NCBI GenBank assembly: GCA_004297005.1
Contig: SCVA01000020.1
Span: 12,789-76,788, forward strand
Source: Nevskiaceae bacterium
Lineage (GTDB): Bacteria; Pseudomonadota; Gammaproteobacteria; Nevskiales; Nevskiaceae
Direction of reading: 5' to 3'
DNA length: 64,000 nucleotides
Shown here: one piece after another, positions 40,511 through 56,871 of the stretch
How the letters are laid out: each line of letters opens with the position of its first letter
Position numbering within the stretch: the first letter of the stretch is position 1
Position numbers and translations under genes: made by a program
The notes under the pieces: model-generated
Database searches by the model: none
Told to the model about the DNA's origin: nothing
The model's input: the letters and a program-made list of their open reading frames with translations, nothing else

Positions 40511-40532
40511 ACGCGCCCCGGGGTTCTGGAAC

Positions 40533-41573: not shown

Positions 41574-41584
41574 GACCCAGCCTC

Positions 41585-41620: not shown

Positions 41621-41636
41621 GAACCGGAACTGCGTT

Positions 41637-42419
41637 CTACTCCAAGCAAAGATCGTTCCGCGCCGGCTCGCCGAGAGCCGGCGCGGCATCCACCTTCAGC
41701 TCGACACCGGTGAGCCGGCGCTGACGCGCCTCGGCCATCAGCCAGACCAGGGTGTCGGCGGCCTGCGCATAGGACAGACCATCGGCGTGGATGTTGGAGA
41801 TGCAGTTGCGCTCGGAATCGGCGCGGCCCAGCCTCGGCGCCCAGGTCAGATAGATGCCCAGGCTGTCGGCAATGGAGAGACCAGGACGCTCGCCCACCAG
41901 CACTGCCACCAGGCGCGCGCCCAGCGCTTCGCCGACTTCGTCGCCCAGCGCCACCCGCGCCTGCCGCGCCAGCACCACCGGCGCCAGCTTCCAGTTGGGG
42001 ATGCGCTCCAGCAGCGCCGCGATCAGCGGCGCGGCGTGGGCGTTGACCGCCGCCGCCGAAAGGCCATCGGCCACCACCAGGGCGAGGTCGTAGTCGCCAT
42101 GCAGCGCACTCAGCGCCGGCAGGTCGTCGGCGTGCAGACGGCGCCCCCAGTCCGGGCGGCGCAGATAACTGGCGCGATCCGGCGCGCGCGAGCGCAGCAC
42201 CAGGCTGGGTAGCGGCCGCAGTAGCTCGGCGATGCGCGGGTAGTCCACCACGCCGTGCACGGCGTCTCTAGCGCGGCCGTGCGCACTCTGGAAGTCCAGC
42301 AGCGCCGTGGTTGGCAGCGCGTCGCCGCTGCGGCCCAGGCCGATGCGCGCGCGGGTGGCGACCCGCAGGCCGGCAAAGGGATCGACCGGACCCGATGGCG
42401 GTGGCTTGAGCGCGCTCAT
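41637..42419 (-). CDS. eutC: ethanolamine ammonia-lyase small (light) subunit
   Basis: 260 aa from ATG 42419 (ATGA overlap with the eutB stop). RARIGLGRSGDALPTTALLDFQSAHGRARDAV and VVADGLSAAAV, LVGERPGLS are typical EutC. Confidence 0.88.
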   Translation of the reverse strand: MSALKPPPSGPVDPFAGLRVATRARIGLGRSGDALPTTALLDFQSAHGRARDAVHGVVDYPRIAELLRPLPSLVLRSRAPDRASYLRRPDWGRRLHADDLPALSALHGDYDLALVVADGLSAAAVNAHAAPLIAALLERIPNWKLAPVVLARQARVALGDEVGEALGARLVAVLVGERPGLSIADSLGIYLTWAPRLGRADSERNCISNIHADGLSYAQAADTLVWLMAEARQRRLTGVELKVDAAPALGEPARNDLCLE

Positions 42420-43813
42420 CGCGGCAGCCCCTCCAGAGCCAGCAACTGACGCAGCGCACGGCTGTCGGCACCCGGCGGCGGCAGCCGGCCCCGCTCGTCG
42501 AGCAGACCCATGCGCGCCAGCCAGGCCTCGAACTCCGGCGCCGGCCTGAGCCGCATCAGATGCCGGGTCGCCACCACGTCGTGGTAGGACAGACTCTGGT
42601 AGCTGAGCATCACATCGTCGGCGCCCGGCACCGCGATGACGAAGTTGACGCCCGCGGTCGCCAGCAGCACCAGCAGCGTGTCCATGTCGTCCTGATCGGC
42701 CTCGGCATGGTTGGTGTAGCAGACGTCCACGCCCATCGGCAGGCCCAGCAGCTTGCCGCAGCAATGGTCCTCCAGGCCGGCGCGGATGATCTGCTTGGCG
42801 TCGTAGAGGTATTCCGGGCCGATGAAGCCGACCACGGTGTTGACCAAGAGCGGCTTGAACTCGCGCGCCACCGCGTAGGCGCGCACCTCCATGGTCTGCT
42901 GATCGACGCCGTGATGGGCATTGGCGGACAGCGCCGAACCCTGGCCAGTCTCGAAGTACATGCAGTGCTCGCCGACCGTGCCGCGCTTCAGGCTCAGCGC
43001 CGCCGCATGGGCCTCGCGCAGCAACGCCAGGTCGATGCCGAAACCGCGGTTGGCGCCCTCGCTGCCGGCGATGGACTGGAACACCAGATCCAGCGGCGCG
43101 CCGCGCTCCATCGCCCGCAGGCTGGTGGTGACATGCGCCAGCACGCAGGACTGGGTGGGAATCTCGAAGCGCTGGCGCAGCGCGTCGAACATCTCCAGCA
43201 GGCGGATGCAGTCCGGCACGCTGTCGGTCGCCGGGTTGAGGCCGATCACCGCGTCGCCGGCGCCGAACAGCAGGCCGTCGAGGGTGGAGGCGGCGATGCC
43301 CAGGGGATCGTCGGTGGGATGATTGGGTTGCAGCCGGCAAGCCAGGCGGCCGGGCAGGCCCAGGGTGCTGCGGAAGGCGGTCACCACCCGGCACTTGGCG
43401 GCGACCGCGATCAGATCCTGGTTGCGCATCAGCTTGGATACCGCCGCCACCATCTCCGGCGTCAGCCCGGGCGCCAGCGCGCTCAGCGCCTCGGTCGTCG
43501 CTTCGTACGAAAGCAGCCAGTCGCGGAAGCCACCGACGGTGAGATGTGCGACCGGCGCGAAGGCGGCGGCCTCGTGGCGGTCGACGATCAGCCGTGTCAC
43601 CTCGTCGTCCTCGTAGGGGATCAACGCCTCGGTGAGAAACGTACGCAGCGGCAGCTCGGCGAGCGCGTAGCGCGCGGCCATGCGGCGCTCGTCGCTGTCG
43701 GCGGCCAGGCCCGCCAGCTCGTCGCCGGAGCGGCGCGGCGAGGCGCAGGCCAGCAAGGTCTTCAGGTCATCGTAGCGATGACGCTGCACCCCGAGGTCGT
43801 GGTGATAGGCCAC
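42416..43813 (-). CDS. eutB: ethanolamine ammonia-lyase large (heavy) subunit
   Basis: 465 aa. ...YRFRDLKTLLA-like N-terminus (HRYDDLKTLLACASPRRSGDELAGLAA), ...NHPTDDP..., GADDVMLSYQSLSYHD. Confidence 0.92.
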   Translation of the reverse strand: MAYHHDLGVQRHRYDDLKTLLACASPRRSGDELAGLAADSDERRMAARYALAELPLRTFLTEALIPYEDDEVTRLIVDRHEAAAFAPVAHLTVGGFRDWLLSYEATTEALSALAPGLTPEMVAAVSKLMRNQDLIAVAAKCRVVTAFRSTLGLPGRLACRLQPNHPTDDPLGIAASTLDGLLFGAGDAVIGLNPATDSVPDCIRLLEMFDALRQRFEIPTQSCVLAHVTTSLRAMERGAPLDLVFQSIAGSEGANRGFGIDLALLREAHAAALSLKRGTVGEHCMYFETGQGSALSANAHHGVDQQTMEVRAYAVAREFKPLLVNTVVGFIGPEYLYDAKQIIRAGLEDHCCGKLLGLPMGVDVCYTNHAEADQDDMDTLLVLLATAGVNFVIAVPGADDVMLSYQSLSYHDVVATRHLMRLRPAPEFEAWLARMGLLDERGRLPPPGADSRALRQLLALEGLPR

Positions 43814-43816
43814 GGC

Positions 43817-44473
43817 TTAGCCGCGCAGGCTGATCGCCCGCCAGCCGCGCTTGGCGGCCTCGGCGCTCAGTACCGGGTCGGCGTCCACCGCCACCGCCTC
43901 GTCGGCCATCTCCAGCAACGGAATGTCGTTGCGGGAATCGCTGTAGGCGATGGTGCTGGTGTAGGCCTGCGGCTGCTGCGCCAGCCATTGCCGCAGTCGC
44001 GTCACCTTGCCACCCTGAAAGTTGGGCAGGCCGGCGACCCGGCCGGTGTAGCGGCCATCGACCATCTCCACTTCGGTCGCGATCAGATGCTCCACGCCCA
44101 GCAGTTCGGCAATCGGCTCGGTGACGAAGCGGTTGGTGGCGCTGGTGATGAGCAGGGTGGCGCCCTCGGCGCGGTGGCGCGCCAGCAGCTCCGGCGCCTT
44201 CGGCGCGACGATGGGCGCGATGCGCTCGGCGATGAATTGCCGGCGCCAGGCGTAGAGCGTCTCGGGATCCTGCGCCGCCAGCGGCCGCAGGCTGAAGGCG
44301 CAGAACTCCAGCATGTCCAGGGTGCCGGCCAGGTATTGCTGGTAGTAGGCCTGGTTGGTGGCCTCGTACTCGGCGCGGTCGACATGGCCCTCGTCGCACA
44401 GGAACTGCCCCCAGAGGAAGTCGCTGTCGTCGGTCAGCAGGGTGTGGTCGAGGTCGAAGATGGCGAGGCGCAT
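43817..44473 (-). CDS. HAD-superfamily subfamily IB hydrolase (SerB-like phosphatase), cytoplasmic
   Basis: Motif I LAIFDLDHTLL, motif II LITSATN, motif III/IV GGKVTRL..YSDSRNDIPLLE. Start at ATG 44473. Stop lies 3 nt before the eutB start. Confidence 0.8.
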   Translation of the reverse strand: MRLAIFDLDHTLLTDDSDFLWGQFLCDEGHVDRAEYEATNQAYYQQYLAGTLDMLEFCAFSLRPLAAQDPETLYAWRRQFIAERIAPIVAPKAPELLARHRAEGATLLITSATNRFVTEPIAELLGVEHLIATEVEMVDGRYTGRVAGLPNFQGGKVTRLRQWLAQQPQAYTSTIAYSDSRNDIPLLEMADEAVAVDADPVLSAEAAKRGWRAISLRG

Positions 44474-44519
44474 GAGCGGAGCGGGAGTAATACGGTTCGG
44501 AGGCGAGCGATGCGGAGCT

Positions 44520-46670
44520 TCAGACACCCATGGCCGGGTCGCTGACCGAGGCCGCGCCGGTTTCGACCCGGCCGGCGTAGCGACGGCTATAGCCACTGCT
44601 GTCGCCTTCGACGGTCACCGTGAAGTCGTACCAGTGGAAGCTGTCGGCCAGCGACCAGGCGTGGTCGGCGCTGCCATAGCCAGGCAGCCGCAGACGTGCC
44701 GGGCCGCTGCTGAAGTAGGCATTGGGCGTGATAACCAGGGTCTTCGCCTCCTTGGAAGGATTGCGGGTCTGCAGGTAGACGTCGCCATTGGCGGCGTCGT
44801 AACAGACACGGATTTCCGGCGTCGGCGCCTGCGTCGAGGCCTTGCCGGTGAAATGCCGGTGCCAGCCATTGTGGCTCAACACCCAGAGATCGTAGGCGCC
44901 ACCGTCTTCGGCGAGGTCCCAGGTGTCGTCCAGCATCTTGCCGGCCTCGATGCCGTAGCGACGCGGATTGCGGTCCAGATGCAGACGGTCGTAGACGTGG
45001 AACACTGCGCCGGCGCTGCCGGTGTTGGCCAGCAGCAGCTTCAGGCGGCGGTCGGCGTGATCGACCTCGGCGGTCACATGCAGCTCGTAAGGCAGCGCAC
45101 AGGAGGGCTTCACGCCCAGCTCCTGCACCGGATAGGCCTGGCTGGCCTCGTCCGGCACCGCCACCTGCGACTGGATCTCCTGGCTGTAGCGGATCAGATC
45201 GGCGCTCAGCTTGGTCTGCAAGGGCAGGCTGTCGCCGCTGTCGTCATTGGGATTGACGAAGTTGAAGCAGCCCATCAGATCGCCAGAGAAGGTCTTGCGC
45301 CAGGCGCTGATATTGGGCTCGGCGACCCCGAAGCGCTGTTCCAGAAAGCGCAGCACCGAGGTGTGGTCATAGGCCTGCGAGTTCACCCAGCCGCCGCGAC
45401 TCCAGGGCGAGATCACGTACATCGGCACCCGCGGGCCGGGGCCGAACACATGCTGGTGGTACTGCTCGCCGATGTAGTACTCGCTGGCGATGTCCGCGAG
45501 CGTGCTCTTGCCGGCCAGGCTGCCGTCGGCGTTCAGCGAGGGCGCGGCATGCGGCGGTACATGGTCGAAGAAGCCGTCGTTCTCGTCGAAGCAGACCAGG
45601 AGCACGGTCTTGGCGAAGACATCCGGGTTGGCGGTGAGGGCGTTGAGCACCTCCTGGGTGTACCAGGCGCCCTGCACCGGGCTGGATGGCCCCGGGTGCT
45701 CGGAGTAGTTGGCCGGCGCCACCACCCAGGACACCTGCGGCAGGCTGCCGGCCAGCACCTCCGCGGCGAAATCCATCAGCATCAGCGGATTCAGCATGTT
45801 GCCGTTGGGCATGGTGTTGGAGCAGCCCTTGTACAGCGGGATGTCGCCGTGCAGCGCCTCGGTGTAGGTGATATAGGGAAACCCTTCGCTGGTGTTGCCG
45901 GCCGCCTCGTTGGCGACCCGGTACTGCTTGAACCCATGCAACGGATTGTCGGTGAAGTTGTCCGGCAGGTTCTGGTAGACCTTCCAGCTCACCCCGGCCT
46001 CTTCCAGCCGCTCTGGATAGGTTGTCCACTCGTAGCCCTCGCTGGAGGCGCCCATCGAGTCCCAGGTGTTGTCGATGGCCGGGCCACCACCGACGCCAGT
46101 GGGGTTGTTGGTGCCGGTCCAGTAGAACAGGCGATTGGTGTTGGTGCCGCCCTGGAAGGCACAGTGGTAGTCGTCGCAGAGCGTGAAGGCATTGGCCAGC
46201 GCGAACTGAAACTCCAGCTCCGCCTGCTTGTAGTAGCCCATCGACTGCGGCTGCTTGTAGGTGGGCCACTGGTCGATGCGGCCGTTGTTCCAGGCCGGCT
46301 GGGCATTGTCCCAGCCGTGCGGGGTACCCTCGACGCGCTGGGCGTTGCCGGCGCTGCTGTCCAGGTGGTAGGGCATGATGACGCGGCTGCCGCCATCCAC
46401 CGCGTAGGTCTGCTCCCAGACCTTGCGCCCGCCCGGCAGCGGAATGCCGAAGCGGTCGCCGAAGCCGCGCACGCCGGCCATGGTGCCGAAGTAGTGATCG
46501 AAGCTGCGGTTCTCCTGAATCAGGATCACCACATGCTCGACATCCATGATGGTCCCCGACTTGTTGTTGGCCGGGATCGCCAGGGCGTCGCGGATGCATT
46601 GCGGCATCAGTGAGGCAGCGGCGCTGCTGCCCGCGAGCTTCAGGAAGCGGCGGCGGTCGAGTGTGCTCAC
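44520..46670 (-). CDS. Tat-exported phosphocholine-type (non-haemolytic/PlcN-PlcH family) phospholipase C, copy A
   Basis: Twin-arginine signal MSTLDRRRFLKLAGSSAAA. Phosphoesterase core VEHVVILIQENRSFDHYFG..GVRGFGD. Two C-terminal DUF756-like repeats. 716 aa. Confidence 0.88.
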   Translation of the reverse strand: MSTLDRRRFLKLAGSSAAASLMPQCIRDALAIPANNKSGTIMDVEHVVILIQENRSFDHYFGTMAGVRGFGDRFGIPLPGGRKVWEQTYAVDGGSRVIMPYHLDSSAGNAQRVEGTPHGWDNAQPAWNNGRIDQWPTYKQPQSMGYYKQAELEFQFALANAFTLCDDYHCAFQGGTNTNRLFYWTGTNNPTGVGGGPAIDNTWDSMGASSEGYEWTTYPERLEEAGVSWKVYQNLPDNFTDNPLHGFKQYRVANEAAGNTSEGFPYITYTEALHGDIPLYKGCSNTMPNGNMLNPLMLMDFAAEVLAGSLPQVSWVVAPANYSEHPGPSSPVQGAWYTQEVLNALTANPDVFAKTVLLVCFDENDGFFDHVPPHAAPSLNADGSLAGKSTLADIASEYYIGEQYHQHVFGPGPRVPMYVISPWSRGGWVNSQAYDHTSVLRFLEQRFGVAEPNISAWRKTFSGDLMGCFNFVNPNDDSGDSLPLQTKLSADLIRYSQEIQSQVAVPDEASQAYPVQELGVKPSCALPYELHVTAEVDHADRRLKLLLANTGSAGAVFHVYDRLHLDRNPRRYGIEAGKMLDDTWDLAEDGGAYDLWVLSHNGWHRHFTGKASTQAPTPEIRVCYDAANGDVYLQTRNPSKEAKTLVITPNAYFSSGPARLRLPGYGSADHAWSLADSFHWYDFTVTVEGDSSGYSRRYAGRVETGAASVSDPAMGV

Positions 46671-46702
46671 GGAAGTCTTTCTCTAAAGAGTGGAAAAGAG
46701 GT

Positions 46703-48859
46703 TCAGCCCAAGCCCATGGCCGGGTCGCTGAGGAGGGGCTCGCCGGTTTCGACACGGCCGGCGAAGCGGCGGCTGTAGCCGCTGTCGTCGCCCTCGATGG
46801 TCACCGTGAAGTCGTACCAGTTGCTGCTGCTCTCCAGCGACCAGCCGTGGTCGGCGGCGCCGTAGGGCCGCAGGTAGAGGCTCCAGGGGCCATCGCCGAA
46901 GTAGGCGTTGGCGCTGATCTTCAGCGTGCGCGCGGTGGCGCTGTCGTTCTTGGTCTGAACATAGACGCCGCCGTTGGCGATGTCGTAGCAGACCCGCAGC
47001 TCCGGCAGCGGCTCGGCCTGCGCGAACAAATTGCCGGTGAAGTGCCGGTGCCAGCCGTTGTGGCTCAGCACCCAGAGATCGTAGGCGCCGCCATCGGCAT
47101 TGAGATCCCAGTGATCGTCGAGCAGCTTGCCGGCCTCGACGCCGTAGCGGCGCGGGTTGCGGTCCAGATGCAGGCGGTCGTACACATGGAACACCGCGCC
47201 GGCAGCGCCGGTGTTGGCGAAGACCAGGCGCAGGCGGCCGGTCCTGGCGTCCAGCTCGGCGCTGGCGTGCAGCTCGTAGGGCAGCGCCCGTGACAGCCTC
47301 ACCCCGGTTTCCTGCACCGGGAAGCTCTGCTCGCTCTCCGAGGGCACTGCCACCGGCAGCATCAGTGACTGCGTGAGCGTGACGGTATCGACGCCGAGCT
47401 TGGTCAGCGCCGGCAGCTCGGCGCTGTTGTCGTTGTTGGGGTCGACGAAGTTGAAGCAACCGGTGAGATCACCGCAGAACGCCCGGCGCCAGGGCCCGAT
47501 GTTGGGCTCGGCCACGCCGAAACGGCGTTCCAGGAATTGCAGCACCGAGGTGTGATCGAAACTCTGGCTGCACACCCAGCCGCCACGGCTCCAGGGCGAG
47601 ATCAGCATCATCGGCACGCGCGGGCCGGGACCAAAGGCGTGGTTCTTGTACTCGTCGCCGATGTAGTACTCGCTGGAGGCATCCGCGAGCGTGCTCTTGC
47701 CGGCCAGCGTGCCGTCGTCGTTGAACGAGGGCGCGCAGGGCGGCGGCAGGTGGTCGAAGAAGCCGTCGTTCTCGTCGAAGTTGACGATCAGCACGGTCTT
47801 GGCGAAGACCTCCGGGTCGGCGGTGAGCGCGTTCAGCACCTCCTGCACATACCAGGCGCCCTGCACCGGACTCGAAGGCCCTGGATGCTCGGAGTAGAAG
47901 GCCGGCGCGATCACCCAGGACACCTGCGGCAGCTTGCCGGCGGTGATGTCGGCGGCGAAGTCGGTGAGCATGTTCGGGTTCAGCGCGTTGCCATTCGGCA
48001 GCGTATTGGCGACGCCCTTGTAGAGCGGATTGCTGGCGTCCTGCGCCTCGTCGTAGGCGGGGTACGGAAAGCCATTGCTGCTGTTGCCGGCCGCCTCATT
48101 GGCGGCGCGGTACTGCTTGAAGCCGGCCAGCGGGTTGTCGGTGAAGTTGTCCGGCAGGTTCTGGTAGACCTTCCAGCTCACCCCGGCGGCCTGGAGGCGC
48201 TCGGGATAGGTGGTCCAACTGTAGCCGCTGCTGCTGGCGTCCAGCGAGTCGTTGGCATTGCTGATAGCCGGGCCGCCGCCGGCACCGCTGTGGTCGTTGG
48301 TTCCGGTCCAGTGGAAGATGCGGTTGGGATTGGTGCCGGCGTGGATCGCGGCGTGGTAGTGGTCGCAGACCGTGAAGGCATTGGCGAGCGCAAACTGGAA
48401 CTCGACCTCGGCCTCCTTGTAGTAGCCCATCGACTGCTCGGTCTTGTAGGTGGGCCACTGGTCCATGCGGCCGTTGTTCCAGGCCGGCTGCGCGTCGCTC
48501 CAGGTGTGCGGCAGCGCGGTGAACTGGGCCACCCGCAGGGCATTGCCCTTGCTCTTGTCCAGGTGGTAGGGCATCAGCGTGCGCGAGCTACCGTTGGCGG
48601 TATAGGTCTGCTCCCAGACCTTGAGTCCACCCGGCAACGGGATGGTGAAACGGTCGCCGAAGCCGCGCACCCCGGCGAGGGTGCCGAAGTAGTGGTCGAA
48701 GGCGCGGTTCTCCTGCATCAGGATCACCACGTGCTCGACATCCTGGATGGTCCCGGACTTGTTGTTGGCGGGGATCGCCAGGGCGTCTCGGATGCACTGC
48801 GGCATCAGCGAGGCGGCAGCGGTGCTGCCGGCCAGTTGCAGGAAGCGGCGACGGTCCAT
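46703..48859 (-). CDS. Tat-exported phospholipase C, copy B (tandem paralog)
   Basis: MDRRRFLQLAGSTAAA, VEHVVILMQENRAFDHYFG. Collinear with copy A along its whole length. 718 aa. Confidence 0.88.
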   Translation of the reverse strand: MDRRRFLQLAGSTAAASLMPQCIRDALAIPANNKSGTIQDVEHVVILMQENRAFDHYFGTLAGVRGFGDRFTIPLPGGLKVWEQTYTANGSSRTLMPYHLDKSKGNALRVAQFTALPHTWSDAQPAWNNGRMDQWPTYKTEQSMGYYKEAEVEFQFALANAFTVCDHYHAAIHAGTNPNRIFHWTGTNDHSGAGGGPAISNANDSLDASSSGYSWTTYPERLQAAGVSWKVYQNLPDNFTDNPLAGFKQYRAANEAAGNSSNGFPYPAYDEAQDASNPLYKGVANTLPNGNALNPNMLTDFAADITAGKLPQVSWVIAPAFYSEHPGPSSPVQGAWYVQEVLNALTADPEVFAKTVLIVNFDENDGFFDHLPPPCAPSFNDDGTLAGKSTLADASSEYYIGDEYKNHAFGPGPRVPMMLISPWSRGGWVCSQSFDHTSVLQFLERRFGVAEPNIGPWRRAFCGDLTGCFNFVDPNNDNSAELPALTKLGVDTVTLTQSLMLPVAVPSESEQSFPVQETGVRLSRALPYELHASAELDARTGRLRLVFANTGAAGAVFHVYDRLHLDRNPRRYGVEAGKLLDDHWDLNADGGAYDLWVLSHNGWHRHFTGNLFAQAEPLPELRVCYDIANGGVYVQTKNDSATARTLKISANAYFGDGPWSLYLRPYGAADHGWSLESSSNWYDFTVTIEGDDSGYSRRFAGRVETGEPLLSDPAMGLG

Positions 48860-48867
48860 GGCGGGTC

Positions 48868-49116
48868 TCAGGAGTGGCTGGCCTTGGCGTGCTCGGCCTC
48901 GCAGGCGGCGCTATCGACCGTCGCCACCGCGACGCCATCGGCCGACTTCGCCGCCACCGTCGCCGGGTCCGGCGCGCAGCGCAGCTCGCGCGGCGCCGGC
49001 GCAAAGCTGGCCTCCGGCGCGTGCGAGGGGCCGCAGGCGGCGAGGCCAGCGGCCAGCGCCAGGCCCAGACAGAGGCTGGCGGCGGCGCGGCTAAAGCTTT
49101 GGGCGTGATGGGTCAT
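48868..49116 (-). CDS. small (82-aa) predicted lipoprotein of unknown function
   Basis: MTHHAQSFSRAAASLCLGLALAAGLAAC-G lipobox. GC3-rich codons. ATGA overlap with the upstream HD gene, and only 8 nt before the PLC start. Two further Cys residues and a His-rich end (EAEHAKASHS). Confidence 0.55.
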   Translation of the reverse strand: MTHHAQSFSRAAASLCLGLALAAGLAACGPSHAPEASFAPAPRELRCAPDPATVAAKSADGVAVATVDSAACEAEHAKASHS

Positions 49117-49721
49117 GGCGTGGCTCCGGTCTGGGCTGACAGCGAATCGGGGGTTGCGGCTGGCGTCCACGTCTCGGCCTGGGCGCGACGCAGATGCGGG
49201 AGAAAATGATCGGCCTCGGGGCTGCGCGCCGAGGGGTCCTTGGCCTGGTCGTCGTAGCGGCGCAGACGCAGCGCCGCCTGCGCCTGCGGCAGGCGGATGA
49301 AGGCGGCGGCCTCGTCGGCCGACATCACCCCGCCCTGCACCGCCAGGCTGGCGCGGGAGGCCTCGGACAGCGCCGCGAGGTAGCCCGGCTCCAGCGCGCA
49401 GAGGTAGCGCTTGGCCTGCACATGCAGGCGCACCGGCTCCACCACGGCGGCGCCGAACTCGCGCTTGAGCAGGCGCAGCGCGCGCAGCTCGTGATGGTCG
49501 TCCTCGCCGCGCGCCAGGCGCGCCACCTCGCTGCCGTCGACCAGATGGCCGAGATCGTGCAGCAGCGCGGCGGCCACCAGCGGCGCGCCCTCGCCCGCCG
49601 CCTCGGCGAGGCTGGCGGCTTGCAGGGCGTGGGCCAACTGGCTCACCGGCTCGTAGCCGTACTGCCCGCCGCCCCGGCTCACCAGCAGCTCCAGCAGGCG
49701 CTCGACGCCCTCGCCGCTCAC
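49113..49721 (-). CDS. HD-domain protein of the phosphonate-operon-associated (PhnZ-like) type
   Basis: 202 aa. H..Q helix (SQLAHALQAASLAE), LLHDLGH, DDHHE, HVQAKRYL: the ligand pattern of PhnZ-type diiron HD oxygenases. Embedded in a phosphonatase cluster. Confidence 0.7.
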   Translation of the reverse strand: MSGEGVERLLELLVSRGGGQYGYEPVSQLAHALQAASLAEAAGEGAPLVAAALLHDLGHLVDGSEVARLARGEDDHHELRALRLLKREFGAAVVEPVRLHVQAKRYLCALEPGYLAALSEASRASLAVQGGVMSADEAAAFIRLPQAQAALRLRRYDDQAKDPSARSPEADHFLPHLRRAQAETWTPAATPDSLSAQTGATP

Positions 49722-50857
49722 AGTCGCGCCTCCAGCACTTCCTCGGCGAGCCCGAACGACAGCGTCATGCCGGCGCCGCCCAGGCCGTTGACCACGGTCA
49801 CGCCCTTGAGCGGATCGGCGACGAGCTCGGTGCCGCCCTTGAGCTTGGGGTAGATGCCGTGCCAGCTCCGCGCCGGGCGATGTCCTGGCAGGCGCATGAA
49901 CTCGTGGATGTAGTCGAGGATGGCCTGGTTGATCTCCTCGCGGTCGAAGGGCTCCAGGGTGTGGCCGTACTCGTGCGAGTCGCCGAGGATCAGCTCGCCG
50001 CTGGCGTGCTGCGAGATCAGCGCGTGGATGCCCCAGCGCCTTTGCAGCGGATAGACCGCGTCGGCGCGCGCGCGCAGCGCCGGCAGGCTATCGGTGCAGC
50101 CGTTGAAGGCGTCGTAATGCAGCAGCGTGAGGCCGGCGCAGAGGCCGGGGCCCAGGCGGTAGCCGCTGTCTTCCGGCGCCACCGAGAGCATCTGCAGCTT
50201 GCACAGCGTCAACGGCGCCAGCAGTTGCGGGAACAGGGTCTGCAGGTCCGGGCCACTGCACACGAAGACATGGCCGGCGCGGATGCGCCCCTGCTCGGTA
50301 TAGAGCAGGCCGCTGTCGATGCCGGTGACCATGCAGCGATTGAGCAGGCGCACGCCCCACTGCTCGGCCAGATGGCTTGCCAGGCCGCGCACGCACAGCG
50401 GCGAGGTGGCGGTGAGTTCGGTGGCGCTCCACAGCGCGCCGAGCAGACCCTCGCGACGCAAGGCCGGCGCCCGGGCGACCGCCTCGTCGGGCGTCAGCAG
50501 GCGCATCTCGTAACCGGCATCGGCGTAACGGGCGAGGAATTCCTCCAGCACCGCCAGCTCGGTGGGATGCCGCGCCGCGTGCAGGCTGCCGCTTTCCGCC
50601 AGCGGCAGGCCGGCCGCGGCCTTGAGATCCAGCCAGTGCCGGCGGCTGCGCATAGCGCGGTCCAGCAGCAGGCCGGGCGGCTGGCCGATGGGCCAGATCA
50701 GGCCGAAGTTGCGCACCGAGGCGCCGACCGCGAACTCGCTGCGGTCGATCAGCGCCACCTTCAGGCCGCGACGCGCGGCCTGATAGGCATGAGCGAGGCC
50801 GACGATGCCGGCGCCGACCACGGCGACGTCGAAGTCACGCGCGCTATCCGCGCTCAT
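49718..50857 (-). CDS. FAD-dependent (DAO-family) oxidoreductase of the phosphonate-cluster-associated type
   Basis: DVAVVGAGIVGLAHAY dinucleotide fold, RNFGLIWPIGQ. 379 aa. ATGA overlaps with both phnX and the HD gene. Confidence 0.75.
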   Translation of the reverse strand: MSADSARDFDVAVVGAGIVGLAHAYQAARRGLKVALIDRSEFAVGASVRNFGLIWPIGQPPGLLLDRAMRSRRHWLDLKAAAGLPLAESGSLHAARHPTELAVLEEFLARYADAGYEMRLLTPDEAVARAPALRREGLLGALWSATELTATSPLCVRGLASHLAEQWGVRLLNRCMVTGIDSGLLYTEQGRIRAGHVFVCSGPDLQTLFPQLLAPLTLCKLQMLSVAPEDSGYRLGPGLCAGLTLLHYDAFNGCTDSLPALRARADAVYPLQRRWGIHALISQHASGELILGDSHEYGHTLEPFDREEINQAILDYIHEFMRLPGHRPARSWHGIYPKLKGGTELVADPLKGVTVVNGLGGAGMTLSFGLAEEVLEARL

Positions 50858-51687
50858 GGCCGTTCACCGCAGGTAAGGCGCATCTCGATGTCGTCGAGGC
50901 AGGCTTCCAGACCGGCGACGCTGTCGATCACGTAGTGGGCGCCGGCCTGCTTCAGGCGCTGGCTGGCGGCGGCGGCGCGGGCGCTGCGCTCACCTGGCGG
51001 CAGCCGCGCCCAATCGTCCAGAGACAGGCCCAGCTCGTTGCCGCTCAGACTCACGGCCACCGTCCACATGCCGGCGGACAAGCCTTCCTGGATGCCGGCC
51101 ACGGTGTCGTCCACCTTCACGCAGGCCTGCACGCAGGACACCCCCAGGCGCAACGCGTTGAGCAGCGCGAGATCGGGCCAGGGCCGGCCGCGCGGTGCGT
51201 CCTCGGCGGCGAGGCTGCAATCCGGCGCATAGCCCTGCGCCAGCGCCGCGCGCTCGCAGAGCGCCAGCATCTCGCGGTTGTAGCCGGTGTTGGCGCCGAT
51301 TTTCAGGCCGCGCGCGCGCAGCCGCTGCACCAGGGCCACCGCGCCGGGAATCATCCGGGCGTTGCTGGCGATGGTCGCGAGCTGGATCGGCAGGAACTCC
51401 CGGTACAGCCGGTCGACGTCGGCCTCGCTGGCGGCACGGCCCTTGGCAGCCTGCCAGTCGGCGGCCACCGCCGGGATCGCCAGCAAGCGACGGATGTGCT
51501 CGCGCTTCTCGGTGCCCATGGGCTCGCGCGCCTGGGCCGGGCTCAGCGCCAGGCCTTCGCGGCGGAACAGTTCGACAAAAGCCTCGACCGGCGCCAGGCA
51601 GCCGTAGTCGATGACAGTGCCGGCCCAGTCGAAGATCACCGCCTGCAGCGGGCCGGCGTAGCGACGTTGGTAACGATACGGAGTCAT
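50854..51687 (-). CDS. phnX: phosphonoacetaldehyde hydrolase (phosphonatase)
   Basis: 277 aa from ATG 51687. LQAVIFDWAGTVIDYG (HAD motif I), EPMGTEKREH (Schiff-base Lys region), GRPWP, KVDDTVAGIQEGLSAGMWTV. Aligns by eye with P. aeruginosa PhnX. Confidence 0.9.
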   Translation of the reverse strand: MTPYRYQRRYAGPLQAVIFDWAGTVIDYGCLAPVEAFVELFRREGLALSPAQAREPMGTEKREHIRRLLAIPAVAADWQAAKGRAASEADVDRLYREFLPIQLATIASNARMIPGAVALVQRLRARGLKIGANTGYNREMLALCERAALAQGYAPDCSLAAEDAPRGRPWPDLALLNALRLGVSCVQACVKVDDTVAGIQEGLSAGMWTVAVSLSGNELGLSLDDWARLPPGERSARAAAASQRLKQAGAHYVIDSVAGLEACLDDIEMRLTCGERP

Positions 51688-51695
51688 GGTCGGAA

Positions 51696-53387
51696 CTAGG
51701 ACTGGCGCCAGTGCTGTAGACGCGCCAGCAGGAACTTCGACACCAGCCAGTGCAGCAGGCGCACCAGCAGGCAGGCCAGCACGATCAGCACCGCCATCGC
51801 GCAGGCTTCGGCGGTCTCGCCGGAGTCGTCGAGATTGAGCGAGGCGACCGAAGCCAGGGTGGTGTCGGTGGCGTAGAGGAAGATCACCGCCGAGACGGTG
51901 CGGATACCGTTGACGAACAGGTAGAACCAGATGTCGAGGATGGCCGGCAGGCAGACCGGCAGCGTCACCTTGCGCAGCAGCCGCCAGGCCGGCGCGCCGA
52001 GCATGGCGTTGGCGGCCTCGAACTCGCGGTCGAGCTGGTTGATGGCGGTGGCGGCGGTCATGTGCACCACGCTGTAGAAGTGCACCACGGTGCAGATCAC
52101 CAAGAGACTCATGCCGCCGTAAAGCACGTTCAGCGGATTGCCCGGCGCGTTGAAGTAGAAGACGTAACCGAGACCGAGCACCAGGCCGGGGATCGCCAGC
52201 GGCAGCATCGCGAACAGGCGGAAGGCATTGCGCAGCACCACGCCCTTGCGGCCCTTCTCGGTGAAGTAGGCGAACAGGAACACCAGCACGGTGCCGAAGC
52301 AGGCGGTGTGGAAGGCCAGTTCCAGCGAGTTGCGGAAGGCGCGCCAGCCGGTGCCGGGCACCGACTCGAAGCGGTAGTTGTCCAGGGTCAGCGTCAGGTT
52401 GTAAGGCCAGTAGCTGACCAGCGAGGCGTACACCGCCATGCCCATGACCGCCAGCACCGCCGCCGACAGCAGCAGCGCGTAGCCCCCGGCCAGGCCGTCG
52501 CGCAAGCGGTCCGGCGGCGGCGTGTAGCGGGTGGCGCGCGCGCCCAGGGCGGCGCTCTGCTTGCTCGCCGACCAGCGGTCCACCGCGAAGCTCAGCAGCG
52601 CCGGCAGGATCAGCACCAGACTGATCGCCGAGCCCATGCCGAAGTTGTGCTGGCCGATGACCTGCTTGTAGATGTCGGTGGGCAGCACGTTGTACTGACC
52701 GCCGATCACCTTGGGCACGCCGAAGTCGGTGAACACCTGGGTGAACACCACCACCGCCGAACCGATCAGGCCGTAGCGCACCGAGGGCAAGGTGACGGTG
52801 CGGAACACCCGGAACGGACTGGCGCCGAGCACCCGCGCCGCCTCGAACAGGCGGCCGTCGGCATTGGCGAAGGCGGTGCTCAAAATCAGAAAGGCCAGCG
52901 GCAGGGTCCAGAACACCGAGCCGATGACGATGCCCACCGGCCCGTACAGCTCGGCGCCGAACAGCAGACCCTTGGCCAGGCCCTGCTCGCCGAACCAGTA
53001 GACCAGCGCCAGACCCGGCATCAGCGAGGGCGCCATCAGCGGCAGAAACAGCACCAGCCGCAGCAGCCCACGCCCCGGCAGCAAGGTGCGCGACACGCTG
53101 TAGGCGGCGAGAAAGGCCAGCGTCACCGAGATCAGCGTCGACACCGTGGACACCCACAGCGAGTTGCGCAGCGAGCGCTGCAAGGCCGGGTCGGCGAGAT
53201 AGCCGAGAAAGCGGGCAAAGCCGACCCAGCGGCCGGAGTCGTCGAAGAAGGCGTGCTCGACCAGGGTGCCCAGCGGCAGCAGCAGGGTCGGCACCGCCAG
53301 CGCCAGCGCGAACAGCAGCAGGCCGCGATCCGACAGGCCCTGCCAGAGCGGGCGCCAGCGCGGCAGCTTCAGGGCCAGGCTGCTCAT
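51696..53387 (-). CDS. ABC transporter fused double permease (2-aminoethylphosphonate/iron(III)-type, PhnU-like)
   Basis: 563 aa from ATG 53387 (MSSLALKLPRW). Two tandem 6-TM permease halves, each with an EAA-like loop (EAARVLGASPFRVFRTVTLP; EAANAMLGAPAWRLLRKVTLP). Confidence 0.82.
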   Translation of the reverse strand: MSSLALKLPRWRPLWQGLSDRGLLLFALALAVPTLLLPLGTLVEHAFFDDSGRWVGFARFLGYLADPALQRSLRNSLWVSTVSTLISVTLAFLAAYSVSRTLLPGRGLLRLVLFLPLMAPSLMPGLALVYWFGEQGLAKGLLFGAELYGPVGIVIGSVFWTLPLAFLILSTAFANADGRLFEAARVLGASPFRVFRTVTLPSVRYGLIGSAVVVFTQVFTDFGVPKVIGGQYNVLPTDIYKQVIGQHNFGMGSAISLVLILPALLSFAVDRWSASKQSAALGARATRYTPPPDRLRDGLAGGYALLLSAAVLAVMGMAVYASLVSYWPYNLTLTLDNYRFESVPGTGWRAFRNSLELAFHTACFGTVLVFLFAYFTEKGRKGVVLRNAFRLFAMLPLAIPGLVLGLGYVFYFNAPGNPLNVLYGGMSLLVICTVVHFYSVVHMTAATAINQLDREFEAANAMLGAPAWRLLRKVTLPVCLPAILDIWFYLFVNGIRTVSAVIFLYATDTTLASVASLNLDDSGETAEACAMAVLIVLACLLVRLLHWLVSKFLLARLQHWRQS

Positions 53388-54454
53388 GCCGCCGCCGACT
53401 CGCTCAGGGGCTCGGCGGGAAACAGCCGCAGGTAGTCGGGATTGAAGTCCAGCGCCAGCGCCCCGCCCACCTCCGGCAGGCCGGCGGCGGCCTCCACCGG
53501 CAGCAGCAACTGCAATTCGCTGCCGTCCGCCAGCCGCGCCAGCAGGCGCAACTGGCTGCCCAGGAACTCGCGCGCCAGCAGCGTCGCCGGCAGGCCGCTG
53601 GCGGCCAGCCGCACCCGCTCGGGGCGGATGCCGGCAGTGATCGGCAGGCCGGGCAGCAGCGAAGCCGGCTGTGGCAGCTCGATGAGCGTGCCAGCGACTT
53701 CCAGCAGGCTGGCATTGCGCAGCCGCGCCGGCAGGAAGTTCATCGCCCCCACGAAGTCGGCGACGAAGCGGGTGCGCGGCTGCTCGTAGATCTCGTAGGG
53801 CGTGCCCACCTGCTCGATCTCGCCGCGATTCATCACCACGATGCGGTCGGCCATGGTCAGCGCCTCTTCCTGATCGTGGGTGACCATGATGGTGGTCACG
53901 CCCAGTTGCGCCTGCAAAGCCTTGATCTGGCTGCGCAGGTGCACCCGCACGCGGGCGTCGAGCGCCGACAGCGGCTCGTCGAGCAGCAAGAGGCCGGGCT
54001 TGGGCGCGAGCGCGCGGGCCAGGGCAACGCGTTGCTGCTGCCCCCCCGAGCACTGCGCCGGATACTTGCGCTCGAAGCCTTCCAGGCCGACCGTCGCCAG
54101 CAACTCGCGCGCCCTAGTCTCGCGCTCGGCGCGCGGCAGCTTGCCGACCAGGCCGTAGGCGACGTTGTCCAGCACCGTGAGGTTGGGGAACAGCGCGTAG
54201 GACTGGAAGACGATGCCGAATCCGCGCTTCTCGGCCGGCAGCGCAGAGATTTCCGCCTCGCCCTGGTGGATGCTGCCGGCGCTCTGCGGGTCGAGGCCGG
54301 CGATGGCGCGCAGCAGGGTGGTCTTGCCGCAGCCGGAGGGGCCGAGGAAGCACAGGAACTCGCCGGCATGCACGTCGAGATGGATGCGATCCAGCGCGAT
54401 GGCCTGGCCATAGCGCTTCTGCAGCTTGCGGATGCGGAGCAGCGGCTCGGTCAT
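53384..54454 (-). CDS. ABC transporter ATP-binding protein (PhnT-like)
   Basis: Walker A GPSGCGKTT, signature CSGGQQQRVALARAL, Walker B LLLLDEPLSALD. C-terminal TOBE-like domain. Confidence 0.9.
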   Translation of the reverse strand: MTEPLLRIRKLQKRYGQAIALDRIHLDVHAGEFLCFLGPSGCGKTTLLRAIAGLDPQSAGSIHQGEAEISALPAEKRGFGIVFQSYALFPNLTVLDNVAYGLVGKLPRAERETRARELLATVGLEGFERKYPAQCSGGQQQRVALARALAPKPGLLLLDEPLSALDARVRVHLRSQIKALQAQLGVTTIMVTHDQEEALTMADRIVVMNRGEIEQVGTPYEIYEQPRTRFVADFVGAMNFLPARLRNASLLEVAGTLIELPQPASLLPGLPITAGIRPERVRLAASGLPATLLAREFLGSQLRLLARLADGSELQLLLPVEAAAGLPEVGGALALDFNPDYLRLFPAEPLSESAAA

Positions 54455-54475
54455 GGGGAGCGGTTCCGGCGCGGC

Positions 54476-55537
54476 CTAGGTCTTGGGCTCGGTCTTGCTG
54501 GAGTAGCGCTTCTGCCACTCCGCCAGCACCCGCTCGCGGTTGCCGGCGACCCAGGCGAAGTCGTTCTTGGCGTACTTGCTGGCGATGTCGGCCGGATAGC
54601 CGGTCACCGGCTGCGCCAGGGCCGGAATGCCGATCATCGGGTAGGCCTGGTTGTAGAGCTTGTTGGCGGTTTCGCTCACCGCGAAGTCCATCAGCTTCTT
54701 CACCGCCTCGGTCTTCTTGGTGCCGGCGACGATCGCCTGCGCCTCCATGTCCCAGCCCAGGCCCTCGCTGGCGAACACGATCTCCACCGGTGCGCCCTTG
54801 GCCTTCTGCTTGACGCCGGTATAGCCCAGCGAGATGCCCACCGGCACTTCGCCGGTGGCGACTTCCTTGCAGGGCTTGGAGCCGGAATGGGTGTAGCGCG
54901 CGATGTTGGCGTCCAGCGCGTTCATGTACTCCCAGGCCTTGTCCTCGCCCATCATCTGCAACCAGCCGGCGACAGCCAGGAAGCCGGTGCCCGAGGAGTT
55001 GGGATTGGGCATCACCACATAGCCCTTGTAGACCGGCTTGGTGAGATCGGCCCAACTGGCCGGCATCGGCAGGTTCTTCTTCTTCAGCTCTTCGGTGTTG
55101 ACGCAGATCGCCGCCTCGTAGGCGTCGGCGGCGGTCCACAGCGGCGGCGTGTGGCTGTCGACGAAGCGCGGATCGAGCTTTTCCACGCCCTGCGGCGCAT
55201 AGCCTTCCAGCAGCTTGTAGTTGTCGAGCAGCAGCAGCGAGCTGGCGGCCAGGCCCCAGACCGCGTCGGCACGCGGGTTGTCCTTCTCGGCCAGCAGGCG
55301 GGCGGTGATGACGCCGGTGGAATCGCGCACCCAGTCGATGCTGATGTTCGGGTTGGCGGCCTCGAAGGCCTGCTTGAAGGCCGGCAACTGCTCCGGCTCG
55401 AAGGCGGTGTAGACCACCAGGCTGGTCTTTTCGGCAGTGGCCGGGGCGGCGTCCTCGGCGCTCTTCTTGCCGCAGGCGGCAAGCAGGCTCAGCGCGGCGG
55501 CGGCCAGGGCGAGGTGCAGACGGTGCTTGATGAACAT
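54476..55537 (-). CDS. periplasmic substrate-binding lipoprotein of the 2-AEP/iron(III)-type ABC importer (PhnS-like)
   Basis: Signal/lipobox MFIKHRLHLALAAAALSLLAAC-G. SBP_bac_6-like pattern (LVVYTAFEPEQL...). Start at ATG 55537. Confidence 0.8.
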   Translation of the reverse strand: MFIKHRLHLALAAAALSLLAACGKKSAEDAAPATAEKTSLVVYTAFEPEQLPAFKQAFEAANPNISIDWVRDSTGVITARLLAEKDNPRADAVWGLAASSLLLLDNYKLLEGYAPQGVEKLDPRFVDSHTPPLWTAADAYEAAICVNTEELKKKNLPMPASWADLTKPVYKGYVVMPNPNSSGTGFLAVAGWLQMMGEDKAWEYMNALDANIARYTHSGSKPCKEVATGEVPVGISLGYTGVKQKAKGAPVEIVFASEGLGWDMEAQAIVAGTKKTEAVKKLMDFAVSETANKLYNQAYPMIGIPALAQPVTGYPADIASKYAKNDFAWVAGNRERVLAEWQKRYSSKTEPKT

Positions 55538-55566
55538 GGCGTTGGTATCCCGAAGAGACGCGGTGC

Positions 55567-56871
55567 TTAGAAAACCCACTGGACGCGGCCGACCACGGCG
55601 CGACCGCTGTCGCCAGCGGCGCCGGTGTCGAGGCCATCGACGGTGGCTTGGGTGACGTCCAGCGCCAGTTTCACGGCGCGGATCGGATACCAGTTGGCGC
55701 CCACCGTGTAGGCGTCGGCGCTGACCTCGGTGCCACCCTGCGGCGAGACCGTGGCGCTCTGGATGCGGGCGACCAGCTCGATGGCGCCGAAGCGGTGATT
55801 GGCGGGCACGATCTTGTCGAAGCGGCCATCCTTGCGCTTGTAGCCGCGCGATTCGCCGGTGAGCGTATAGGTGCCGGTGAGGTAGTAGCCGCTGACGTCA
55901 ATGTCGCCGCTGCCTTCGGCGCCGCCGATGCTGCGGCTCAGGTACTCGGCCTGGAAGGACATCGGCCCGAAGATGCCGGCCGCCTCCAAACCGTACTGGC
56001 TGTCGCTGTCGATGGGTTGGCTGGCCGCCAGGGTGAGCTTGCTGATGCCGTGGACGCCCAGTCGCGAGCGGACGTTGGTGGTGGCGCCGTCGCCGGGGTT
56101 CTGGTCGCCGTAGGAGAGTCCCAGATGCAGCACGCGGCCCTTGTCTACCCAGGGGGTGTAGACCAGGCGGCCGTTGAGGGCGTAGTGGTCCTTGCCGCTC
56201 TTGGTCGGCTCGTCCTCGGCGTAGGCGTCGGACAGTGCCAACTGGTAGACCAGGCCGGACTTGTTGCCGAACTCGAACAGCTTGCTGGCCTGCAGCGAGA
56301 ACTTGGTGATGTCATTGGCCGGCGCCAGCTCCCAGATATAGGCCAGCTCGGTGAGTGGCTGCCAGTTGGAGCTGGTGAGGATGTCCAGCGACACCGGGCG
56401 CTTGAAGCGGCCGACGGTGACATCGGCGTACTTGAAGCCGGTGTACTGCACCATCGCGGTGTCGATGGTGGTGGCGGTCTCGTCGATGCTGCGGGTGTCT
56501 TCGGCGAGATTGACCAGGAAGGTGTAGTTCCAGTCCTTGCTGTACCAGCCATTGAAGCCGAAGCGGGCGCGGCGCAGCTCGCTCTCGCTGCCGGTGGCGC
56601 CATCGCCACCCTGGTTGTAGAAGCCGTCGAAGTAGTTGACGTCGAACACCGTGCGGCCCTCGATGTCGAAACCGGCGCTGCCATCATCCGACTCGATGCT
56701 GAAACCGCCGCGGGTCTTCACCTTGAAGCCGATCTCGCGGACTTCCGGCTTGGCCGGTTCGGCCAGGGTCTGCACCGGAATGGTGTTGGTCATCGGCTGC
56801 TGCGCCGCGACCGAGTAGGAAACCGCGAGCAGGGCCGCTCCGGCGAGACGGGCAGGCAAAGACTGGTGCAT
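55567..56871 (-). CDS. phosphate-selective porin O/P (OprP/OprO) family outer-membrane porin
   Basis: Signal peptide ...AVSYSVAAQ. FQAEYLSR...SGYYLTGTYTLTGESRGYK...DGRFDKIVP...YTVGANWYP...GRVQWVF parallels P. aeruginosa OprP (FSAQAEYLRR..SGYYAQLAYTLTGEPRLYK..HTLGVNWY..RLQYVF). Confidence 0.82.
   Translation of the reverse strand: MHQSLPARLAGAALLAVSYSVAAQQPMTNTIPVQTLAEPAKPEVREIGFKVKTRGGFSIESDDGSAGFDIEGRTVFDVNYFDGFYNQGGDGATGSESELRRARFGFNGWYSKDWNYTFLVNLAEDTRSIDETATTIDTAMVQYTGFKYADVTVGRFKRPVSLDILTSSNWQPLTELAYIWELAPANDITKFSLQASKLFEFGNKSGLVYQLALSDAYAEDEPTKSGKDHYALNGRLVYTPWVDKGRVLHLGLSYGDQNPGDGATTNVRSRLGVHGISKLTLAASQPIDSDSQYGLEAAGIFGPMSFQAEYLSRSIGGAEGSGDIDVSGYYLTGTYTLTGESRGYKRKDGRFDKIVPANHRFGAIELVARIQSATVSPQGGTEVSADAYTVGANWYPIRAVKLALDVTQATVDGLDTGAAGDSGRAVVGRVQWVF

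Follow-up and report, generated by a model that had tools for sequence, protein, structure and literature searches.

A stretch of 64,000 nucleotides from the Nevskiaceae bacterium assembly GCA_004297005.1 (contig SCVA01000020.1; hereafter the window, with a GC content of ~67%) carries 13 consecutive genes on its minus strand (41637-56871), delimited by GC3 frame analysis and translations, that run from an outer-membrane porin gene to eutC. The array is made of a module for phosphonate uptake and breakdown, a small lipoprotein with two phospholipases C (PLCs), and a HAD phosphatase with the ethanolamine ammonia-lyase EutBC, while beyond eutC a 14th co-directional gene (40533-41573) encodes an AraC-family regulator. 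We propose that the array would be a composite nutrient-salvage locus in a freshwater Stagnimonas species, with four separable modules whose packing is close enough for read-through as one or a few transcripts, a reading towards which its sequence and packing incline us with moderate confidence.

The packing agrees closely with a description made earlier from the letters of the window (the sequence-only reading). All 13 minus-strand reading frames that it listed from the porin to eutC are present, with a third-position GC of 0.80 to 0.92, and all 12 junctions measure 46 nt or less. The distances are 29 nt between the porin and the substrate-binding protein genes, 21 nt between the latter and the ATPase gene, 8 nt for permease/phnX, 8 nt for lipoprotein/PLC1, 32 nt for PLC1/PLC2, 46 nt for PLC2/HAD (indeed the largest gap, as had been stated), and 3 nt for HAD/eutB, the five remaining junctions (ATPase/permease, phnX/FAD oxidase, FAD oxidase/HD, HD/lipoprotein, and eutB/eutC) being 4-nt overlaps. 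All five overlaps had been given as ATGA; four are, and the FAD oxidase/HD overlap reads GTGA because the HD gene begins with GTG, a start codon shared with PLC2 and eutB. No terminator-like hairpin had been seen before the end of eutC, and this stands: a scan of the window returned 8 terminator candidates versus 6.6 +/- 2.6 in shuffled sequences, i.e., no excess, and the four candidates on the minus strand each lie within coding sequence, none being intergenic before eutC. Moreover, the two longest spacers of the array show no structure (-1.6 and -2.8 kcal/mol), a hairpin being found only after eutC. Rfam and tRNA scans of the window gave zero matches.

Gene products of the array

The array, whose genes all lie on the minus strand, opens with an OprO/OprP-type anion-selective outer-membrane porin of 434 aa with a Sec signal peptide (55567-56871; PF07396 Porin_O_P, E 8e-54, full length). 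Its orthologues also lead the arrays of Stagnimonas aquatica (L001), Solimonas sp. K1W22B-7 (L002), and a 16.2-kb metagenomic contig (L003). The next three genes encode a PhnS2T2U2-type importer, namely, a PhnS2-type periplasmic substrate-binding lipoprotein (54476-55537; TIGR03261, 475 bits versus a cut-off of 393; lipobox LLAAC), a PhnT2-type ABC ATPase with Pfam ABC_tran and TOBE_2 domains (53384-54454), and a PhnU2-type fused permease of 563 aa (51696-53387; TIGR03262, 737 bits versus a cut-off of 593). The binding protein and the permease score above their cut-offs, and the ATPase falls just below that of its best match, TIGR03265 (450.5 versus 457.7 bits); throughout the array, the family-matched parts score above, or a few bits under, the curated family cut-offs. 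The name of the importer family, putative 2-aminoethylphosphonate (AEP) ABC transporter, rests on gene context. As the solved structures nearest to the binding protein include a pyridoxal-5'-phosphate-binding protein (6WCE), phosphate monoesters are plausible ligands on sequence grounds; in the AEP-transporter study, phosphoethanolamine was not among the compounds tried.

Breakdown of the imported phosphonates would begin with the products of the following genes. PhnX, a phosphonoacetaldehyde hydrolase or phosphonatase (50854-51687; TIGR01422, 330.5 bits versus a cut-off of 220), carries the FDWAGT nucleophile motif, and its gene is overlapped through ATGA by that of an FAD-dependent oxidase of AEP and N-methyl-AEP of the PbfD family (49718-50857; TIGR03364, 397.6 bits versus a cut-off of 285.1). 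This oxidase has a full-length PF01266 fold (E 1e-49) and shares 71% identity with its Solimonas sp. K1W22B-7 counterpart, and no aminotransferase gene (PhnW) is found in the array. Zangelmi et al. (2023) showed that PbfD oxidizes N-methyl-AEP, and with some members AEP too, to phosphonoacetaldehyde, PbfD1 of A. baumannii and PbfD2 of M. fucicola being the only members so demonstrated, and that PbfD stands in for PhnW in clusters without the transaminase (PMC10590968). Conversion of AEP by the oxidase and PhnX into acetaldehyde and phosphate, as put forward by the sequence-only reading, has thus been demonstrated experimentally for the family, with N-methyl-AEP as a further substrate and without PhnW (PMC10590968). 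The third enzyme (49113-49721) is an HD-domain mixed-valent diiron oxygenase of the PhnZ/TmpB type, barely above the family cut-off (TIGR03276, 216.0 versus 214.6 bits), which keeps LLHDLGH and aligns over its full length to TmpB (6NPA, E 3e-31) and PhnZ (4MLM, E 2e-20). The earlier labels of FAD oxidase and HD protein were hence correct as far as they went and are refined here to the PbfD family and to the PhnZ/TmpB-type oxygenases. A distant PbfD locus (L098:9174-12806) holds the importer genes, PhnX, and PbfD together with a TmpA equivalog (428 bits versus a cut-off of 400) adjoining a TmpB/PhnZ-type HD gene, and its gene content indicates that a hydrolytic and an oxidative (trimethyl-AEP type) route are combined there in one cluster.

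The two PLCs belong to the phosphocholine-type PlcH/PlcN family (TIGR03396, cut-off of 580), with 915 bits for PLC1 (46703-48859) and 908 bits for its tandem paralogue PLC2 (44520-46670; GTG start). Each has a Pfam Phosphoesterase domain (PF04185) and two PLipase_C_C stretches, and the Tat motif (RRRFLQ in PLC1, RRRFL common to both) bears out their earlier description as exported enzymes. The two proteins are 73% identical (BLASTP) and, in a neighbor-joining tree without bootstrap values, are mutual nearest relatives despite the presence of a PLC pair in L003, so that one-to-one orthology of the two pairs was rejected. Their N-termini are near-identical over ~45 residues, covering the signal peptide and the start of the mature protein. 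The history of the pair suggested by these sequences is one of gene conversion between tandem copies or of independent, lineage-specific duplications.

Directly upstream of PLC1 lies the gene of a small lipoprotein of 82 aa (48868-49116; lipobox ACG, motif HCAP[DE]P) without any Pfam or NCBIfam match. Its homologues precede Nevskiales PLC genes in L001, L003 (L003:7634-7864), L005 (L005:9775-10014), L095 (L095:9735-10004), L096 (L096:9795-10004), and L097 (L097:9750-10004), where the open reading frames (ORFs) sit directly upstream of the PLC and mostly overlap its start, whether or not phn or eut genes are linked. The members of this unannotated family (69 to 89 aa; "hypothetical protein" in S. 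aquatica) share the ACG lipobox, HCAP[DE]P, and another cysteine, and they may act as PLC accessory or secretion factors.

The ethanolamine end of the array consists of EutB, the large subunit of ethanolamine ammonia-lyase (42416-43813; NF011649, 707 bits versus a cut-off of 554; Pfam EutB, E 3e-216), and EutC, the small subunit (41637-42419; NF003971, 303 bits versus a cut-off of 230). The GTG start of eutB lies 3 nt past the stop codon of the HAD gene, and the EutB domain match begins at residue 4. PhnX, PbfD, the HD protein, HAD, and EutBC are devoid of a signal peptide; with Tat motifs on the PLCs and lipoboxes on the binding protein and the small protein, the gene identities and the cell topology assigned by the sequence-only reading were upheld. 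No ethanolamine permease (Eat/EutH) was found in the window, which fits ethanolamine arising inside the cell, and the Rfam scan returned no B12 riboswitch near eutBC.

The AraC-family regulator, which extends the 13 genes of the sequence-only reading to 14 (40533-41573, 63 nt past eutC; Pfam Arabinose_bd and HTH_18), is QhpR-like, i.e., of the amine-operon type (NF049968, 332 bits versus a cut-off of 250), and does not match an EutR model. An orthologue with 75% identity follows eutC in L003, and the regulator travels with eutBC in relatives. Its targets probably include the eut part at the least. The spacer between eutC and the regulator gene (41574-41636) holds a hairpin followed by UUUU (minimum free energy of -31.1 kcal/mol, z -2.0). 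S. aquatica retains the stem with other bases and in a weaker form (z -0.7), and L003 has nothing comparable; this hairpin is possibly a weak terminator or attenuator.

Occurrence in related genomes

Four architectures were distinguished. The first is that of the window and S. aquatica, with the same full 14-gene order and proteins 89 to 99% identical. In the second, L003, the order is porin, importer, PLC, lipoprotein, PLC, HAD, EutBC, and AraC, after which come a LysR gene of the phosphonate type and an iron-containing alcohol dehydrogenase gene; its orthologues are 56 to 85% identical to those of the window, gaps do not exceed 57 nt up to eutC, and no PhnX, PbfD, or HD gene lies between the permease and the PLC. 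The third, in Solimonas sp. K1W22B-7, runs through LysR, the iron-containing alcohol dehydrogenase (TIGR03405), porin, importer, PhnX, an NPP-type phosphodiesterase, PhoD, PbfD, and HD, with orthologues 64 to 75% identical to those of the window and with neither PLC nor eut genes. The fourth, L008, has HAD (88% identical) and EutB (90%) behind an unrelated regulator gene and a 117-nt gap, with no PLC and no importer upstream.

In the Solimonas cluster, the position that the PLCs hold in the array is taken by the NPP-type enzyme, which carries a lipoprotein signal, and by PhoD, which carries a Tat signal. Hence, a slot for exported esterases beside this importer appears, from gene order, to be filled recurrently by unrelated enzyme families (PLC on the one hand, NPP and PhoD on the other), which lends independent support to the coupling of exported esterase and importer.

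Elsewhere, the modules were met apart. Other Nevskiales PLCs (L005, L007, Nevskia soli, Solimonas variicoloris, and a JGI genome) have unrelated neighborhoods, each with a lipoprotein homologue directly before the PLC, L007 excepted. The fusion is absent from 6 other PbfD loci and from 5 other PLC neighborhoods (L005, L007, and L095 to L097). Distant PbfD loci (L098, Chitinophaga, Ralstonia, Burkholderia, and Gloeocapsa) hold neither PLC nor eutBC, a survey of plasmids and chromids with PbfD (the Ralstonia, Burkholderia, and Gloeocapsa loci) gave no PLC and no eut gene, and a permease-based metagenome scan gave only four distant importers (26 to 47% identity) without PLC, eut, or PbfD neighbors. 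The question raised earlier of a linkage beyond this genome is therefore answered in part: S. aquatica has the identical order and L003 a part of it, and it was found nowhere else among the compared loci.

This distribution can also be explained by a mosaic, in which a phosphonate operon, a lipoprotein-PLC pair (since duplicated), and HAD-eutBC-AraC were juxtaposed by rearrangement and kept their own regulation and their own promoters, the latter located within the coding sequence upstream, with eut metabolically unlinked to the rest. Such an origin would account for modules that each occur alone in relatives, for a full fusion limited to one genus-level clade, and for the dedicated AraC regulator accompanying eutBC; the L008 arrangement, with HAD-eutB after its 117-nt gap behind an unrelated regulator, implies that this part can be expressed alone. 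It accounts less well for the inter-module junctions, which are tight (8 nt for lipoprotein/PLC1, with a 4-nt HD/lipoprotein overlap just before, and 46 nt for PLC2/HAD) and hold neither a hairpin nor a conserved spacer element. Moreover, the PLC-HAD-EutBC join recurs in L003 behind a different upstream arrangement, and an unrelated exported esterase pair is found at the equivalent Solimonas position. We thus regard an unlinked mosaic as doubtful: the tight packing, the join shared with L003, and the esterase slot in Solimonas favor functional coupling within a salvage locus.

The HAD phosphatase beside eutB

The phosphatase gene (43817-44473) encodes a cytoplasmic HAD-IB enzyme of the PA0335 histidinol-phosphatase family, passing the cut-off of that family (NF052360, 301.5 versus 280 bits). 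PA0335, the family founder, is a histidinol-phosphatase validated genetically (PMC12220765). HAD homologues with 50 to 75% identity are common across Gammaproteobacteria, and a sample of 80 species or loci among the matches listed, with the closest genomes outside it, served as the housekeeping sample. In none of the 80 sampled loci (among the matches listed) does eutB, eutC, or a PLC gene lie 10 kb or less from the HAD gene. Among the loci compared, HAD adjoins eutB solely in the window, S. aquatica, L003, and L008, at a distance of 3 to 4 nt in all four.

The four eut-linked HADs form one clade, sister to the copies of Solimonas sp. K1W22B-7 and L009 in a neighbor-joining tree. The housekeeping address of the gene in Nevskiales, divergent from a NUDIX gene and near genes for bacterioferritin and inositol monophosphatase, is kept in L009, L012, L014, L015, L017, and L080, the window copy lying instead between PLC2 and eutB. 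A metagenome-assembled genome assigned to Stagnimonas has a HAD at this address that is 62% identical to the window HAD, and the window HAD is 71 to 75% identical to the Solimonas copies. Altogether, the tree and the addresses indicate that a single relocation or duplication event put HAD beside eutB.

Signs of a changed function were sought in the sequence and not found: among 55 positions with a conservation of 95% or more across the 80 relatives, the eut-linked HADs retain 54, and the sole change, T111S in motif II, is conservative. Since HAD is of the housekeeping type without a sign of neofunctionalization, we can only infer that it converts phosphoethanolamine to ethanolamine. Such an activity is nevertheless chemically plausible, because histidinol phosphate amounts to a 2-aminoethyl phosphate substituted on carbon. 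The enzyme may also be a plain histidinol-phosphate phosphatase, ethanolamine then reaching EutBC otherwise, through a permease encoded elsewhere or from glycerophosphodiesterase products. Its score above the equivalog cut-off, its near-invariant positions, an identity to the Solimonas copies that is in line with the 64 to 75% of the other cluster orthologues, and the genetics of PA0335 (PMC12220765) are all compatible with such a role. Its position is not what a plain histidine-pathway gene would lead one to expect: it has left the NUDIX/inositol-phosphatase neighborhood, where the 62% identical copy of the Stagnimonas metagenome-assembled genome suggests that the window copy is an extra one, it lies 3 to 4 nt from eutB throughout its clade, and one would seldom expect a constitutive biosynthetic gene to be translationally packed with a catabolic lyase that is inducible. 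We therefore consider a purely biosynthetic role rather unlikely. Of the earlier proposal of a cytoplasmic phosphoethanolamine phosphatase, the location is supported by the lack of a signal peptide, while the substrate, for a Pseudomonas-type histidinol-phosphatase, keeps the standing given above.

Upstream region and surroundings

A divergent intergenic region of ~300 nt (56872-57170), common to the array and to opgD/mdoG, is presumed to be the main promoter region. An AT-rich 11-mer, CCAAATGTCAA, occurs there at 56985-57010 (minus strand), ~115 to 125 nt 5' of the porin start in both the window and S. aquatica. It recurs at L003:1-20, 5' of the L003 porin gene, with ~0.03 matches expected by chance; this copy is in the opposite orientation, and the 11-mer was not called an operator. 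An internal operator 5' of HAD was likewise rejected, with no element common to the window, S. aquatica, L003, and L008, the spacer differing even between the two Stagnimonas sequences. On the far side of the promoter region, S. aquatica has a HigB-like toxin and helix-turn-helix antitoxin pair (L001:1268-1864) between a short-chain dehydrogenase/reductase (SDR) gene and mdoG; the pair is absent from the equivalent site of the window (58748-58815), where the SDR-mdoG gap is 67 nt.

Convergent with the AraC gene, the plus strand (35703-40510) carries two tandem pairs of a ferredoxin-NAD(P) reductase gene and a fatty-acid-desaturase-family gene (35703-36830 with about 36830-38065, and 38180-39301 with 39329-40510), upstream of which lies a TetR regulator gene (34848-35528, minus strand). 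The GC skew of the plus strand flips sign at ~40000-44000, with a cumulative minimum near 42 kb, i.e., at the 3' end of the array. The coding strands of the minus-strand array are C-rich, and the flip could reflect the direction of replication, or the segment could have been inverted or inserted in the past. Farther away on the minus strand, an ORF of 549 aa (17581-19230) has a weak match to a lysyl-oxidase domain (PF01186, E 6e-6), unusual in bacteria, and a predicted lipoprotein of 689 aa (22259-24328) is encoded where the GC content of the window is lowest (0.61), with a GC3 of 0.72 that is below that of its neighbors; its gene may have been acquired horizontally.

Known systems and proposed head-group salvage

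The phosphonate part of the array belongs to the published type of PbfD-PhnX(-PhnZ) clusters: a TIGR03364 oxidase gene adjoins phnX, phnW is missing, and a homologue of phnZ is accompanied by importer genes of the PhnS2T2U2 type. Table S1 of Zangelmi et al. (2023, iScience 26:108108; PMC10590968) has an entry "PbfD / phnX / phnZ" for the cluster of Solimonas sp. K1W22B-7 itself. To this known type, the array adds the PLCs, the small lipoprotein, the HAD-IB phosphatase, and eutBC, and neither the text nor the supplement of that study mentions phospholipase, phosphodiesterase, or ethanolamine, the Solimonas porin and esterases being left undiscussed (PMC10590968). We found no paper in the literature joining eutBC, PLC, and aminophosphonate genes as a unit. 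The organization had been thought undescribed, which is right for the joining of PLCs and HAD-EutBC and too broad for the porin-importer-PhnX-PbfD-PhnZ cluster type, which is published (PMC10590968). The new part is hence the fusion of PLCs and HAD-EutBC onto a known aminophosphonate cluster.

Parallels to the added modules exist in other systems. The PhnY*/PhnZ and TmpA/TmpB pairs (McSorley 2012; Rajakovich 2019; 4MLM, 6NPA) each include a full-length match to the HD protein, and in these pairs, unlike in the window, a dioxygenase makes the 1-hydroxy substrate; L098 has such a dioxygenase gene. In plants, the PF04185 PLCs NPC4/5 free phosphoethanolamine or phosphocholine, from which the HAD enzymes PECP1/PS2 recover phosphate (PMC7862535, PMC5853852, PMC6549246), but this route is eukaryotic, intracellular, and unclustered, uses another HAD subfamily, and has no import, phosphonate branch, or ethanolamine lyase. 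The array also shares features with bacterial circuits of amine release and breakdown. In the PlcH/PlcN-PchP-choline circuit of P. aeruginosa, studied by Wargo and colleagues, the genes are scattered, the head group is choline, PchP is periplasmic and acts before uptake, and the freed amino alcohol is catabolized and feeds back on expression. As in that circuit, a Tat-exported TIGR03396 PLC would free a phosphorylated amine and a HAD-superfamily phosphatase would free the amino alcohol; unlike it, the array has contiguous genes, a phosphatase without a signal peptide, EutBC as the end-point, and an attached phosphonate branch. For short proteobacterial eut loci, the arrangement reportedly described by Tsoy et al. 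in 2009 is an eat permease gene with eutBC and a regulator gene, and in the enterobacterial eut operon the AraC-type EutR stands at the 3' end. The array likewise has a eutB/eutC overlap, an AraC-family regulator at the 3' end, and no microcompartment genes, but the window lacks the permease and the EutA reactivase, the regulator is QhpR-like, and the phosphatase gene takes the place of the permease.

On the basis of gene content and order, we propose that the array is plausibly a lipid head-group salvage locus. The two Tat-exported PLCs, with the small lipoprotein, would cleave phospholipids, and the phosphonate analogues of these, at the glycerol- or ceramide-O-P bond, as expected from the PLC family, releasing phosphoethanolamine or phosphocholine and AEP-type head groups. 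These small anionic amines, presumably including phosphoethanolamine, would be imported through the OprO/P-type porin and PhnS2T2U2. PbfD would then convert AEP or N-methyl-AEP to phosphonoacetaldehyde, from which PhnX would yield acetaldehyde and phosphate, as in the biochemistry of characterized family members, while the HD oxygenase, if it behaves like its family, would cleave head groups already 1-hydroxylated to glycine (or betaine) and phosphate. On the ester side, HAD-IB, recruited from the histidinol-phosphatase family, would dephosphorylate phosphoethanolamine, and EutBC, by its family assignment, would turn the ethanolamine into acetaldehyde and ammonia. The net yield from lipid head groups would be phosphate, ammonia (or methylamine), and C2 units. 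The Tat, lipoprotein, and import signals fit this flow. Its more specific parts, that PhnS2T2U2 also carries phosphoethanolamine, that the relocated HAD replaces an ethanolamine permease, and that the PLCs, NPP, and PhoD free phosphonolipid head groups, are put forward tentatively, being in our view somewhat less probable than not.

The same enzymes might be turned inward, with the PLCs stripping the own phosphatidylethanolamine (PE) of the cell under phosphate starvation and the array recycling the head groups. PE is the main proteobacterial lipid, and plant NPC (PF04185) and the HAD phosphatase PECP1 act in this way under phosphate starvation (PMC5853852, PMC7862535). However, the layout, in which Tat-exported PLCs are accompanied by an outer-membrane porin as well as a high-affinity importer, is typical of scavenging from the surroundings, the phosphonate enzymes have no known role on own lipids, and no phosphonate-synthesis genes occur in the window, so that we hold such membrane remodeling to be highly improbable.

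Several observations tell against a salvage locus working as one unit. Among the loci compared, the full fusion is confined to one narrow, genus-level clade; relatives carry its modules apart, with HAD-EutB alone in L008 and lipoprotein-PLC alone in Nevskia, Solimonas, and others, as well as phosphonate operons devoid of PLC or eut. The L003 contig, for its part, stops 83 nt past the alcohol dehydrogenase gene, and phosphonate genes may lie just beyond. A canonical Pho box, sought as two CTGTCAT-like repeats with an 11-bp period, was not found upstream of the porin gene in the four loci, the best match reaching 9/14 in the window and L001 and 9 to 10/14 in L002 and L003, with a consensus that may not be that of the Nevskiales PhoB site. 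On the enzymatic side, the PLCs take their family name from phosphocholine, their action on PE or phosphonolipids being a proposal made here, and HAD, which passes the histidinol-phosphatase cut-off and keeps the family positions, may be a plain histidine-pathway enzyme. No 2-oxoglutarate dioxygenase partner of the HD protein (PhnY*/TmpA; TauD/PhyH-type) is among the called genes of the window, and no acetaldehyde-handling enzyme was found in the window, iron-containing alcohol dehydrogenase genes flanking the L002 and L003 clusters.

If the salvage reading is true in its more specific parts too, one array would mine PE and its carbon-phosphorus analogues for phosphorus, nitrogen, and carbon. 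AEP-type phosphonates in nature are mostly bound in lipids and glycans. To our knowledge, the known catabolic clusters take the head group in its free form, and its release has been assigned to few well-defined enzymes. The exported PLCs of a PbfD-PhnX-PhnZ operon, as well as the NPP and PhoD enzymes of Solimonas, are thus candidates for this release step. From the array, one would further predict that a "phosphonate" importer takes up phosphoethanolamine and that a histidine-pathway enzyme has evolved into a phosphoethanolamine phosphatase. It may, therefore, illustrate how phosphorus-, nitrogen-, and carbon-scavenging modules are assembled in low-phosphate freshwater bacteria.

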